A DNA stretch of 41,764 nt, filler included, from Bonamia ostreae (GCA_040357525.1; 20 parts of 20 records of this genome joined end to end with filler, not necessarily neighbours in it); one strand, 5' to 3'; counted from the whole stretch's first letter, positions 20,401 through 41,764 are shown. Translations and numbers: made by a program. The notes: a model not told the origin generated them from the letters alone.

Positions 20401-20999
20401 TGCCAGTAGCTTAATCCTAGTAGTAAAAATAATATCACACTTTGTTTAACACATGTACCAGAAGCAGTTATATATTTGCATCGTTGTTTCAGACTCTCCG
20501 ACATTCAGAGTAAAACCACGTCAAGAATTATCCTATAACGACAGGTAAATCAGATTTAGTAATGTGTTTGAAATTTTAGCTTGGAAAGACATTTGTGCAT
20601 GGGTATGACCTTCTTGTCTATATATTACGTATTTATACTCGTATCTATACAACTTTGCTCTTTATGATACGATTCAAGATCCACATTCACAGTTCCGATT
20701 TCCCTGACCATCGTGTACAAAGTATAACATAAACATCATAAATTATCTACAGTGTTTCCTACTCATAACCAAATTTTCCTAAGCATGTATTGATATATTA
20801 CAATAATCTCCAGGAATCATGTTNNNNNNNNNNNNNNNNNNNNNNNNNNNNNNNNNNNNNNNNNNNNTTAATTAATTAANNNNNNNNNNNNNNNNNNNNN
20901 NNNNNNNNNNNNNNNNNNNNNNNCTTATTTTTATGTCAGTAATTATTAATATTTTAAGGATTTTTTTAGGTCAATTACTGTAATTGGCCCGCTTTAATA

Positions 21000-22348
21000 T
21001 TGATTTTATTATGGTTATGCGGTAGTGCTTGAGTGGTTGTAGCATTAGACATACAAGCTTTATAAATACTTTTTTTAGTATTTATGGCGAACGGGTGAGT
21101 AATAAGAGATTTTGTACCTTCAAATTTATTTTAATATATTTTAAATTATTTTTTTTTAATTTATAGAATAGTTTTGTTTAAAAGCTAAGGGCGTTGTTGA
21201 TCTAATCTCTTCGAATCAGGCTATAATTTAATTTTTATTAACCGATGACTCGTAGCGGGTTGTAACGTAATACCTGCCACACACGAACTGAGACAAGGTC
21301 GTGACATTTGTCTGTAGTCTGGAATTTTGAACAATGAGTAATAGCTCGATTTGGCTAAACCACTAAGAGTAAGTTACATATTATGCTTTAATAACTGACT
21401 TTTGGCATGAAAAAATAATGGCCCGGAAAAAAGCTGTGCCAGAAGCCTCGGCAATACAGTGTGGCCTGTGCTCCGTAGCGTGAATTGGTGTAAATGTAAT
21501 CAAACTAAAGAATGTCTAGATATGTTTTTATGAATCTATGTTTAGTTTTATCATATTTTGAATCATTCCTTTTTTATGAATTATTTCTATTTAAGCAGTA
21601 CTAATTATCTAAAGAAACAATCTTTTGGAGATTTTTAGGACTTCCGTTTTACAAAAAAGCTTTTAGGTTATAATTGACGTTGAATTTACTAAAGCAGGGG
21701 GCGCGACGGAGATTAGGTACCTCCTTAGTCCCTGCCCTGAATTTTGAGTATTAATTATATTTTAATATATTTTTATTATTATCGTATTAGAATACTTAAC
21801 CTCGATAGTATGGCCGCAAGGTGAAAACTGAAATAAATTGGCAGAGATTGGCGGAAACACTGGAGCGTGTAAATTAATTTGATAATCCCCGTTTTACCTT
21901 ACTATAACTTTTAGAAGGCGTTGCATGGTTTCGTTAGTATTTTGCTGTGAAGTATTTTATGACCCCCATTATGATTTATTTATATTAAGATCTAGTGGAA
22001 TTTAGTAAAATCGATATGGCCCTTATGTTATAGGCTTTATATTCGCTACCAAGAATATTTTTTAGTATTTTTATTAAATTAATTTTTATCTTATTTGGAA
22101 TATTTTCTGAAACTTGGAAATATGAAAAAGTAATTGTTAGTAATCATTTGTTTAGAATGCAATGATGAATTTTTTTCCAGTCTTGTTCAAACCGTCCACC
22201 ACCTCGTGTTGAGTTGTTTGAGTATTATATTTCTTTTAGGGTTTTAAAAAAAATATATTTTCTATTTTTCTTCTTTAGGGAAGTTACTCCTCATTCAGCA
22301 ATTTATGGTAAGGTGTAGCAAGGTAAGGGTACGAGAACGTGCCCTTGG
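21000..22348 (+). rRNA. rns: Mitochondrial small-subunit rRNA (ends approximate)
   Basis: GGCGAACGGGTGAGTAA, GTGCCAGAAGCCTCGGCAATAC, GATTAGGTACC, GGCCGCAAGG..AAACT, CTTGTTCAAACCGTCC and the AAGGTA-h45 hairpin occur in 16S order. Confidence 0.95.
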
Positions 22349-22419
22349 GGGCGTATAGTTTATTGTTAGAATAAAAGTCTTCAAAACTTTAGGAAAGGGT
22401 TAGATTCCCTTTGCGCTCG
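22349..22419 (+). tRNA. trnW: tRNA-Trp, anticodon UCA
   Basis: Acceptor GGGCGTA/TGCGCTC, anticodon arm AAAGT-CTTCAAA-ACTTT (TCA at 22381-22383), T arm AAGGG-TTAGATT-CCCTT. Confidence 0.93.
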
Positions 22420-22429
22420 TTTTATTAAA

Positions 22430-38743: not shown

Positions 38744-38795
38744 TATTTTTATTTCTTAATTATTTTTATTTCTTAATTATTTTTATTTCTTAATT
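38744..38795 (+). repeat. 17-bp tandem repeat TATTTTTATTTCTTAAT (3 copies; 2 in the second unit)
   Basis: Read directly from the sequence. Confidence 0.9.
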
Positions 38796-39409
38796 ATTTC
38801 TATTTTCTTGTCTAATAGTAGCATCTATTTCTTTTATTTGAAATAGTGGGTGGGTGGGCATATTTATCAATTTTTTTTTATTTTTTATAATTAGTTAGTT
38901 CAGGGCTGCTATGTTTAATCTATCTCTTAGTTTTACTTATATACTTTATTTTCTTAATTTTTTTGAAATAAATACTTTTATAAATTTTGTTTATATTTTT
39001 ATATTTATAAAAAATAATTTTTTATTATTTCTTTTTTTTTGAAATATGCTTCTTTTTTACGTTTATTTTAAGTTATTTTAATTTTTTTAAATTTTATTTC
39101 ATTATTAATTTAGTGCTTGTCTTTTTTAACATATATTGAATTAAATTTATTACTTTTTTAAATATAAATAATCTTCATTTTAAAGTTATAAATACTTTTT
39201 TTAAATATTTTTTTAAGTTCTTTTTTTTTAAAGTGATTAATAAAATTATAAGTAATTAAGTAAGGTGGTTACAACTATTTTTATATCTCTATACTTTAAT
39301 TTTTCTTAATAATAACAATTATTTCATTCTATTTGAAATAGTGGGGGTGTCTATATTTATCAATTTTTTTCCAATATTCTTATTATTTAATTATTGATTA
39401 TTTTCTTAA

Positions 39410-41086
39410 ATGTTATTTAAAGTTTTTTCTTATTTTTCTAAATTATTTAGTACAGCTCTCTATGGCCTCGGTGCATTGGGGGCTGGTATTTGGCTTTACT
39501 TTTTTATGGCTCATTTTGCTATAGTTACTCTTTTGAAAATTTTTTATTTTAGGATAAATTTAAAAAATATTTTTAAATATATTATGTTATATGCTAATAA
39601 GGCTTTTGCTTTAAAAGTTTTTTATTATTCTCTTATTTTTTTATTGATTTATATTAATATTAAAGAATTATCTTTATTATTTATAGACAATCCTCCTTTT
39701 ATTCTTACTTTTATTACTATTTATTTATTAAGATATTCTTCTATAGATTCGGATAAGCTTATAAAGTATTTTATATATAGTACTTCAGTTTTTGTTATGC
39801 TTGCTCCATTTATTTTTCTTTTTCTTGGGAATGATTTTGTTCATGAGTGTGATTCTCGTTTTGATGGAGGCTCTAGTAATAATTGATGAATTTTTCTTTT
39901 TTTTAGTGACTTAACTCTTGCTATTTTTAATGCTTGTTTTGAAAAAGAATTAATTACGGTTAGGTGTGCTTCTGAGCTTTTAAGAGAACATCTTATTAGA
40001 GGCAGATTTTCTGGAATTATTTTTAAATCCCTTCCTTGAGTACTTGCCATTGGTCCAGATGTTCATTGAGCACTTTTTATCAAAGCAGGTCATTATGTTC
40101 CTTATAAAATTATTAATGATTTTAGTTATGCTAATTTTTTTATTCTTATTACTTATTTTGAAGGCGTGAATCCTAATCAATTTAAATTAAATCTTTTACA
40201 AGAATTAGCTAATGAGTATTTATTAGAGCATCCGGAATTTAGTGATATTTTAACTCCTAAATTTTTAAGAAGTTATATGTACGGTCTTAATACTTCTTCA
40301 GATGTTGATAAAACTTTAAATTCTTTAAGAGATTTTTTTAAGTTTTTTGAAATGGATTATATAGAACGTTATAGAGCAAAGTGTATTGAATTAAATTGAA
40401 AGGCTGTTAGGACTTGTTACGGAACTGCTTTTGAACCTAATATTCTTAATGAGTCTATGAAAGGGGAATATATAGGTAGAGGTTATTATTCTCCTGCTAA
40501 ACCCTATTTTGAGAAAACTTTTTTTTCCCCTGAGGATACTCAGCACGCTCAGGGAATTATTAAAATAGCTAAGAAGTTACGTCCCGATATTAGTAATAAT
40601 ATAGAGCAGCTTGCTGTTTTAAGAATGTTTTTTCCAGAGCGTTGTGTATTATCTAATGATAGAAAGGAATCTGTTGAACATTATGATCGTATAGCGTGAG
40701 ATCCTAACTGACCCAAAATAGATCATTGAACTCCTAAGCAAATTAATGATGGGTATGCTTTGAAATTTCCTTATATTACATATGCTAAAGAATTAATAGA
40801 TTCTTATAATTTTAGAAGAGTGTTAAGTTATGATGAATTTAAAAAAAGACTTAAGGAGGATATTATGAAAAATGGTAATTTACTTAGGGAGCGGGATGAT
40901 CTTTTAGTAGAGGCTTATGAAAAATATTATAGGCAATTAAGGCGTTATCCTGAATTAAAAGAGGGTCAGGCGGTTGTTAAGGAACGATTTAGTCATACTA
41001 GTCCTTTTGACGAATCTTATGCTTCTGTAAATAATGACGCGTATACTTTTTTTGATTATTATAATAGTTTATCTGATAGTAATTAA
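39410..41086 (+). CDS. Orphan ORF558, copy 2
   Basis: Translations identical to copy 1; a third start is at 41742. Confidence 0.85.
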
Positions 41087-41764
41087 ATTTATTATTTTTA
41101 TTTCTTAATTATTTTTATTTCTTAATTATTTCTATTTTCTCGTCTAATAGTAGCATCTATTTCTTTTATTTGAAATAGTGGGTGGGTGGGCATATTTATC
41201 AATTTTTTTTTATTTTTTATAATTAGTTAGTTCAGGGCTGCTATGTTTAATCTATCTCTTAGTTTTACTTATATACTTTATTTTCTTAATTTTTTTGAAA
41301 TAAATACTTTTATAAATTTTGTTTATATTTTTATATTTATAAAAAATAATTTTTTATTATTTCTTTTTTTTTGAAATATGCTTCTTTTTTACGTTTATTT
41401 TAAGTTATTTTAATTTTTTTAAATTTTATTTCATTATTAATTTAGTGCTTGTCTTTTTTAACATATATTGAATTAAATTTATTACTTTTTTAAATATAAA
41501 TAATCTTCATTTTAAAGTTATAAATACTTTTTTTAAATATTTTTTTAAGTTCTTTTTTTTTAAAGTGATTAATAAAATTATAAGTAATTAAGTAAGGTGG
41601 TTACAACTATTTTTATATCTCTATACTTTAATTTTTCTTAATAATAACAATTATTTCATTCTATTTGAAATAGTGGGGGTGTCTATATTTATCAATTTTT
41701 TTCCAATATTCTTATTATTTAATTATTGATTATTTTCTTAAATGTTATTTAAAGTTTTTTCTTA

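Follow-up and report, generated by a model that had tools for sequence, protein, structure and literature searches.

The window analysed here is a stretch of DNA of 41,764 nucleotides (nt), and its right half (20924–41764) is a single contig of 20,841 bp with 23.0% GC. We found that this contig is a compact, one-strand protist mitochondrial DNA (mtDNA) on which no complex I gene is detectable, a statement that holds for the contig and not for the organism. Its atp1 gene lacks the part for the N-terminal crown domain, its cox3 gene appears in two separated pieces, and a probable half of cox2 is present. Taken together, we consider it probable that the contig represents the greater part or the whole of the mtDNA of a fast-evolving, AT-rich protist, most likely an ascetosporean, in which genes have been split or shortened and complex I has been lost. 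An earlier reading of this DNA (the original prediction) had described a genome of this kind; it is partly confirmed, in that what it observed exists and was for the most part described correctly, and its interpretation is overstated.

The window is made of 20 stretches joined by linkers that consist of N44, TTAATTAATTAA and N44. The last of these artificial linkers occupies 20824–20923, the contig's first base being 20924, and positions 1–20823 comprise 19 separate contigs of ~1 kb that are unlinked to it. Every feature of 20924–41764 lies on the + strand, and features occupy 17,201 of the 18,454 bp (93%) in the unique part plus one unit of a terminal tandem repeat. When translated with table 4, the contig beyond its rRNA and tRNA genes formed a dense row of + strand open reading frames (ORFs), with Pfam matches above the cut-off for atp9, the nucleotide-binding domain of atp1, cob, atp6, cox3 and cox1. 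The proteins recognised belong to complex III (cytochrome b), complex IV (cox1, the probable cox2 half and the cox3 pieces) and complex V (atp6, atp9 and the alpha subunit without crown), and rRNA genes of bacterial type occur beside these respiratory-chain and ATP synthase genes. GC content at third codon positions was lower than at first and second positions in 18 of 19 measured ORFs, among them the orphans; the exception was the second cox3 piece (piece b), in which second- and third-position GC are equal (0.19). The original prediction had held that this is not the host's (animal) mitochondrial genome, and a compact one-strand protist mtDNA contig is indeed supported. Likewise, Rfam, ARAGORN and Pfam matches bear out its placement of rns, trnW, rnl, atp6, atp9, cob and cox1 on the + strand.

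Four of the protein genes were readily recognised. cox1 (33759–35315) is full length and matched PF00115 over positions 1–435 of 436 (E 8.8e-113) and TIGR02891 over 1–466 of 504. cob (28083–28991) measures 302 codons from stop to stop and has a short C-terminus, matching PF00033 (E 1e-20) and PF00032 only over positions 6–45 of 102. atp6 (28979–29629, 216 codons) matched PF00119 and TIGR01131 (20–226 of 227, E 5.3e-14), and atp9 (26595–26822, 75 codons) matched PF00137 (E 5.2e-12). In both cob and cox1, conserved N-terminal residues lie upstream of any ATG, GTG or TTG; these two genes therefore would begin at another start codon, such as ATT or ATA.

Both rRNA genes are continuous. The small-subunit gene rns (20993–22360) matched Rfam RF00177 over model positions 1–1533 (277.3 bits), and the large-subunit gene rnl (22482–24506), shortened to 2,025 nt, matched RF02541 over positions 1–2925 (339.5 bits). 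Between them, trnW(UCA) (22349–22419) was identified by ARAGORN (anticodon tca) and by the Rfam tRNA model (60.1 bits); its 5' part shares 12 nt (22349–22360) with the 3' end of the rns match. Apart from rns, this one tRNA and rnl, no RNA gene was found on the contig with Rfam at E ≤ 1. TGA is read as tryptophan on this contig, because cox1 has 9 TGA codons, 6 of which correspond to alignment columns with W in 52–60 of 60 homologues, and because TGA outnumbers TGG by 63 to 19 in the listed ORFs. Annotation with genetic code 4, which the original prediction had proposed as a check, was thus borne out, and the tRNA anticodon is TCA. All other tRNAs would be imported, and trnW(UCA) would have been retained because an imported cytosolic tRNA-Trp(CCA) is unable to read UGA.

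The atp1 gene (26971–28092, 373 codons) matched PF00006 (E 1.1e-37) and has no N-terminal crown domain. Matches to the full-length profiles covered positions 138–430 of 507 in NF009884 and 134–393 of 503 in TIGR00962; about the first 135 profile positions are missing. The protein starts within the loop that precedes the nucleotide-binding domain, and it diverges strongly in its C-terminal domain. The start is preceded, 2 codons upstream, by a stop codon, and there is no open frame upstream. Among the 13 best database matches, 12 are proteins of 216–377 amino acids (aa) that contain the nucleotide-binding domain only and are 36–55% identical to the protein of the window. A methionine stands exactly at the start column of the window's protein (M-x-L-[IV]-D-R) in 8 of these 12 short relatives, while 2 begin a few residues upstream and 2 downstream. 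On a tree, the 13 short forms made up one group, with a Shimodaira–Hasegawa-like approximate likelihood ratio test (SH-aLRT) value of 100, against 35 full-length alpha subunits; these comparators were every third listed match of at least 440 aa (n = 35) and are mostly bacterial, and composition bias and long branches were flagged. Because 12 relatives are short and 8 of them share the identical start column, the truncation is, judged by these sequences, a conserved trait of the lineage and no accident of this assembly. Three of the relatives (P0128–P0130) end at TDGQ, where seven others go on with W, which suggests that the relatives also read TGA as tryptophan and that standard gene callers cut their atp1 short at TDGQ.

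The missing crown was sought in all six frames with a hidden Markov model (HMM) built from 66 alpha subunits over positions 1–133, and the best E-value was 0.84. Upstream of the protein genes named so far lies ORF174 (24571–25095, + strand), a basic orphan (K and R 17%) with no match in Pfam, NCBIfam or PDB. A by-eye alignment had put this ORF forward as the crown, and the candidate was rejected: hhalign gave E 0.66, the crown HMM did no better than the value above, and PDB offered no match. A word search with ORF174 returned no homologue, and its AlphaFold2 (AF2) model, with a predicted local distance difference test score (pLDDT) of 33, was unusable. We infer that the missing part of atp1 is either encoded elsewhere or unrecognisable. 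Searches for related loci in metagenomes, with the short-atp1 alignment and generic ATPase patterns, yielded only loci of 32–40% identity, which we read as ordinary bacterial-type alpha genes. A viral collection gave two distant partial matches, and none for cox1, and a scan of a genome collection for cox1 recovered bacterial cox1 only (32–42% identity).

Two ORFs matched complementary parts of cox3. Piece a (31677–32219), containing the middle helices, matched PF00510 over positions 75–218 of 258 (E 7e-9) and the PDB entry 8c8q_C over residues 86–224 of 269 (E 2.9e-7). Piece b (35254–35430, 58 codons), containing the last helix and the motif VDFVWLF, matched the Pfam COX3 family over positions 228–255 of 258 (E 0.5), and all four of its PDB matches at E ≤ 10 were COX3 C-termini (residues 237–271, E 0.15–0.2). 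Each of these scores for piece b is weak alone, and the piece shares its sequence in part with the 3' end of cox1, read in a different frame. Among 551 six-frame ORFs, piece b is the only one with the motif VD.[VI]W[LIFV]F. Because the two pieces match complementary COX3 residues (86–224 and 237–271), their homology indicates that cox3 really is split into two complementary pieces. They lie ~3 kb apart, with cox1 and three orphan ORFs between them, and the contig yielded no match to the initial ~75 positions of the COX3 profile. A cox1–cox3 fusion in the relatives was considered and rejected, as the C-terminal extensions of the relatives' proteins carry no cox3 motif.

The ORF at 25098–25598 is probably the N-terminal half of cox2, comprising the transmembrane part up to the QWxW strand. 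Its only two NCBIfam matches, obtained with the ORF taken as 25080–25595 and both below threshold, are to cytochrome oxidase subunit II and fall in the N-terminal half (TIGR02866, E 0.0071, profile positions 20–106 of 202; NF050117, E 0.016), and it has no Pfam match. When compared by hhalign with the COX2 parts of 25 fused proteins, it aligned over 10 columns at QWYW (E 0.002, probability 14%), so that only the position of the QWxW strand fits COX2 in this comparison. Neither the CuA half nor a CuA motif was present among the 551 six-frame ORFs. The original prediction had placed atp1, cox2 and cox3 in pieces. That all three deviate from the normal form is supported, and the claims of fragmentation fared unequally. 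For cox3 it was upheld, with two complementary parts matched at separate places. For atp1 one conserved piece is present, and the six-frame search found no second one; for cox2 there are weak matches to an N-terminal half and no CuA half in six frames. Its further proposal that complexes IV and V are built from split subunits is accordingly visible on the DNA for cox3 only, atp1 and cox2 being represented by one part each.

Complex I and II genes were absent from every search made of the contig. Pfam at E ≤ 10 assigned none of 20 stop-to-stop ORFs to a family of complex I or II, nor did it, at E ≤ 1, assign any of another 10 ORFs, of which 7 are on the minus strand; among the matches listed, NCBIfam linked none of 17 ORFs to such a family. 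A handful of nad and sdh motifs found no match in the 551 six-frame ORFs of at least 20 aa. The earlier observation that no nad or sdh motif is present is therefore reproduced by family profiles as well as by motifs, and the orphan ORFs match no nad family, as the profile searches for nad that had been proposed as a check now show. The accompanying statement that complex I had been lost divides in two: the lack of nad genes on the contig stands, and loss at the level of the organism is unproven for a contig that ends in a tandem repeat.

The owner of the contig is likely an ascetosporean, haplosporidian-type protist, as suggested indirectly by comparison with published gene inventories, and the haplosporidian of oysters proposed in the original prediction is a plausible guess. 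The mitochondrial genomes of Paradinida sp. FC901 and SRM-001 measure 23.0 and 20.1 kb, and their genes, according to Table 1 of Yabuki et al. 2025 (PMC11946409), measure 389–393 codons for atp1, 303–304 for cob, 131–132 for cox2, 216–225 for atp6 and 75–77 for atp9, next to an orf174. The contig has 373, 302, 216 and 75 codons for atp1, cob, atp6 and atp9, the likeness being one of gene lengths and gene names rather than of sequence. As far as that article's main text and table go, the likeness to Paradinida extends from the short atp1, cob, cox2, atp6 and atp9 to the few tRNA genes and the similar-sized orphan ORFs, orf174 included. Two differences stand out against the same source (PMC11946409, main text): paradinids have nad1–5 and nad7, and in one strain nad6, whereas the contig has none; and their frames are broken by stops that RNA editing mends, whereas the frames of the contig are open. 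Paradinid-type editing was examined on the contig and set aside, since, of the 15 conserved cox1 sites that deviate, A-to-G or C-to-U changes could account for 4 only, and no editing signature is evident.

Another counterpart has been described from Bonamia ostreae. The main text of Hiltunen Thoren et al. 2024 (PMC11069148) reports a putative partial mitochondrial contig of ~21 kb, with low GC and high coverage, that carries genes for rRNA, tRNA, ATPase, cytochrome oxidase and cytochrome b; according to the main text of Yabuki et al. (PMC11946409), all of its protein genes occur in paradinids too. Our contig resembles it in size (20,841 bp against ~21 kb), in a GC content below that of the nuclear contigs of the same study and in the same gene classes, and the reported end overlap is 5 bp (PMC11069148) against 4 nt here. 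In the part consulted, Yabuki et al. (PMC11946409) list trnI, trnV and trnQ for the Bonamia contig, whereas we found trnW only. The main texts of these two articles (PMC11069148, PMC11946409), as distinct from their supplements, mention neither complex I, NADH or respiration, nor shortened genes, nor a tandem repeat, and our literature searches, supplements aside, found no paper on the lack of complex I or the shortened genes of the Bonamia contig. The gene content is probably in print in outline already; the parts of most interest are the conserved atp1 gene without crown and the contrast with the nad-bearing paradinids.

Several findings speak against our interpretation. The 3' end of the contig is a tandem repeat, in which unit 1 (37029–39377, 2,349 bp) is followed by unit 2 (39378–41709, 2,332 bp) and by the first 55 nt of a third unit (41710–41764), where the contig stops. 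The 5' end is unattached, and suffix and prefix overlap by 4 nt; extra unique sequence, or a second mitochondrial molecule that bears nad genes, is therefore possible. A complete mtDNA would be recognised by a closed circle or by defined ends, and the contig displays neither. The hydrophobic orphans at 35900–37060 and 32904–33470 could be membrane subunits that have diverged beyond recognition. The cox2 candidate lies below every curated cut-off (15.9 bits against 147.7, and 14.5 against 250), and a COX2 HMM made from the 25 fused proteins had no match in six frames. ORF174 gained no support as the alpha crown, that is, as a second piece of atp1. In the overlap of cox1 and cox3 piece b there is a run of eight T (T8, 35278–35286), and one T fewer would fuse piece b to cox1; the odd position of piece b would remain even if this run had been miscounted. 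Finally, the assignment to a taxon is based on gene lengths and literature, not on a tree.

One alternative is that the contig is part of a mitochondrial genome whose nad genes lie beyond the repeat array or on another molecule, complex I being kept. The ends just described would suit such a genome, as would the term "putative partial" applied to the published haplosporidian contig in the main text of PMC11069148 and the presence of nad1–5 and nad7 in the related paradinids (PMC11946409, main text). We nevertheless regard it as improbable. The unique part, 93% gene-filled, already contains both rRNAs and all other expected gene classes, and seven nad genes would require ~7.5 kb more, going by the paradinid lengths tabulated in PMC11946409. 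The nearest cox1 and atp1 relatives are on contigs of 16.1–17.2 kb, which could fit a small genome.

A second alternative concerns the owner, which might belong to some other fast-evolving protist lineage with a mitochondrial atp1 and TGA read as tryptophan. The best database matches of cox1 (57–58% identity) and atp1 included no named rhizarian sequence. Against this stand the gene-by-gene agreement in length with Paradinida, short atp1, cob and cox2 and orf174 among them (PMC11946409, Table 1), and the description, in the main text of PMC11069148, of a haplosporidian contig that agrees in size and in gene classes, and we judge an owner outside Ascetosporea to be unlikely.

It is much less credible that the shortened and split genes are artefacts, with full-length genes hidden by homopolymer indels, RNA editing or trans-splicing. 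Adjoining ORFs do overlap in different frames, the T8 run lies in the overlap of cox1 and cox3 piece b, and RNA editing is heavy in paradinid mitochondria according to the main text of PMC11946409. Yet the start of atp1 is common to 8 of 12 independent relatives and has no open frame upstream; piece b of cox3 is 3 kb from piece a with cox1 between, an arrangement that no indel can mend; none of the six frames contains coding sequence for CuA or the alpha crown; and A-to-G or C-to-U changes restore only the 4 of 15 cox1 positions given above. Least convincing is the proposal that one or more of the orphans at 35900–37060, 32904–33470 and 33529–33771 are extremely divergent nad subunits of a persisting, reduced complex I, which we consider very improbable: the three are polytopic membrane proteins of nad2-, nad6- or nad4L-like sizes, paradinid nad2 measuring 358–369 codons (PMC11946409, Table 1), but they lack a match even at E ≤ 10, and with the well-conserved nad1, nad4, nad5 and nad7 absent, any single peripheral membrane subunit would be left with nothing to assemble into.

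Under the interpretation we prefer, a shortened and split mitochondrial gene set in a protist that has lost complex I, electrons would be passed to ubiquinone by enzymes encoded in the nucleus, a type-II NADH dehydrogenase for example. The alpha crown, the CuA domain of cox2 and the first helices of cox3 would be made as separate polypeptides, mostly from nuclear genes and perhaps in one case from an orphan ORF of the contig. These parts would then come together with the pieces made in the mitochondrion, in the manner of the two alpha fragments of trypanosomes. More tentatively, and with less confidence than we place in this reading, a wider history may be sketched: in Ascetosporea and their environmental relatives the alpha gene would start after the crown, a split at gene level in roughly the loop where a protease cuts in Euglenozoa, and hence a second independent departure from the conserved F1; the haplosporidian branch would also have dropped complex I and broken cox2 and cox3; and its mtDNA would end in, or be closed by, a 2.3-kb array with a 558-aa membrane-anchored protein, possibly a lineage-specific maintenance or selfish element.

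That protein, ORF558, is encoded identically in both complete repeat units, at 37061–38737 in unit 1 and 39410–41086 in unit 2. In unit 1 it is accompanied by a 640-bp AT-rich spacer with a 17-nt minisatellite, and the two units differ by one minisatellite unit of 17 nt and one base, both in the spacer. Three membrane segments are predicted near the N-terminus of ORF558, followed by a soluble C-terminal part. With 8 TGA codons against 1 TGG, the ORF is read by the mitochondrial code. No Pfam or NCBIfam family matched it, and phmmer found no match among 1.84 billion representative proteins, a search whose power is lowered by the fragmentation of relatives with TGA as tryptophan by standard gene callers. 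Its AF2 model (pLDDT 39) was unusable.

The contig contains about ten unrecognised ORFs, which, like its genes, are all on the + strand. ORF346 (25561–26601) has 10 TGA codons, no CuA motif and no Pfam or NCBIfam match. ORF459 (29575–30954), also without a match in these two collections, is very basic (K and R 16%, D and E 3%) and possibly a ribosomal protein. The very basic orphan ORF248 (30944–31690), our guess at the rps3 of the original prediction, has no S3 match. With the ORF taken as 30929–31687, neither Pfam and NCBIfam (both at E ≤ 10) nor PDB gave a match, the C-terminal domain of ribosomal protein S3 included; basic composition alone fits, and rps3 is not confirmed. ORF228 (32228–32914), ORF188 (32904–33470), which is hydrophobic with 4 predicted membrane segments, and ORF88 (35442–35708) matched no family. 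ORF80 (33529–33771) is a small membrane orphan with no Pfam match; it contains an internal methionine followed by P-L-I-R-W, which we take to recall the MPQL start of atp8, and no family match backs this. ORF386 (35900–37060) is very hydrophobic, with at least 7 membrane segments predicted from hydropathy, and had no Pfam match at E ≤ 10.

The 3' tandem repeat and the unlinked contigs on the left were both outside the account given by the original prediction. The 19 left contigs have many minisatellites (for example 20 nt × 19 at 15424–15808 and 15 nt × 16 at 5176–5412) and no long ORFs, and look nuclear; one of them has an exon of the SNF2 family at 1332–1715 (PF00176, E 3.5e-6). The stretch was partly present in 9 of 24 listed sequencing runs, which come from 5 studies and nearly all carry one species label; no RNA run is listed among them. 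In 11 other runs with the same label, next to none of its words were found, a zero share being no proof of absence. Such patchy presence would fit a parasite that occurs in only some of the host samples.

Bonamia and other haplosporidians are lethal to farmed oysters, and very little is known of how they gain energy. A mitochondrion with complexes III–V and without complex I would rely on alternative NADH dehydrogenases. These enzymes are absent from the main respiratory chain of the molluscan host and would thus be natural drug targets, as in apicomplexans. The contrast between paradinids that bear nad genes and a contig that bears none would also serve to date a loss of complex I within a single rhizarian class.

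Mitochondrial DNAs without complex I genes are found in Myzozoa, Saccharomyces, Schizosaccharomyces and Rozella, which keep complexes III–V and oxidise NADH by nuclear type-II dehydrogenases. Unlike myzozoan mtDNA, the contig keeps atp1, atp6 and atp9 and has continuous rRNAs. It comes from a lineage different from all of these, and its loss of complex I would be an independent one within Rhizaria. Split cox2 genes are reportedly found in chlorophycean algae and alveolates (cox2a and cox2b) and in scoliid wasps, where the genes are said to be complementary and their products to assemble; by comparison, three genes are affected on the contig, both pieces are seen for cox3 only, and the cox2 assignment is weak.

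For the crown-less atp1, the nearest parallel is the split F1 alpha subunit of Euglenozoa. The abstract of a 2025 preprint presents euglenozoans as the only known exceptions to the conserved F1. If true, a conserved atp1 without crown would be the second exception and a natural experiment in the anchoring of the peripheral stalk. In T. brucei, cleavage of the alpha subunit within the loop that follows the crown gives parts of 13 kDa and 47 kDa, both present in the working enzyme (bioRxiv 10.1101/2025.10.24.684300). The contig differs in the origin of the break: in Euglenozoa the split is proteolytic and affects a nuclear-encoded, full-length protein (bioRxiv 10.1101/2025.10.24.684300), whereas on the contig the gene itself begins after the crown, and, unlike in Euglenozoa, no crown piece was found. 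The two are alike in where the subunit is divided, a crown piece being separate from a piece with the nucleotide-binding and C-terminal domains; the euglenozoan break falls in the loop after a DGKG-type motif (same source), and the atp1 of the contig starts, by alignment, roughly 15 residues after this motif.

Within Rhizaria, reduced mitogenomes are also reported for Retaria, including one of 22.7 kb from the planktonic foraminiferan GI-D (PMC13421374, PMC10127745). According to these two reports, Retaria have fragmented rRNAs and keep at least some nad genes, whereas the contig has continuous rRNAs and no nad; their mitogenomes agree with the contig in small size and AT-richness, in having lost genes, in a tRNA set that is minimal or absent, and in the splitting of genes, which in Retaria concerns nad1.

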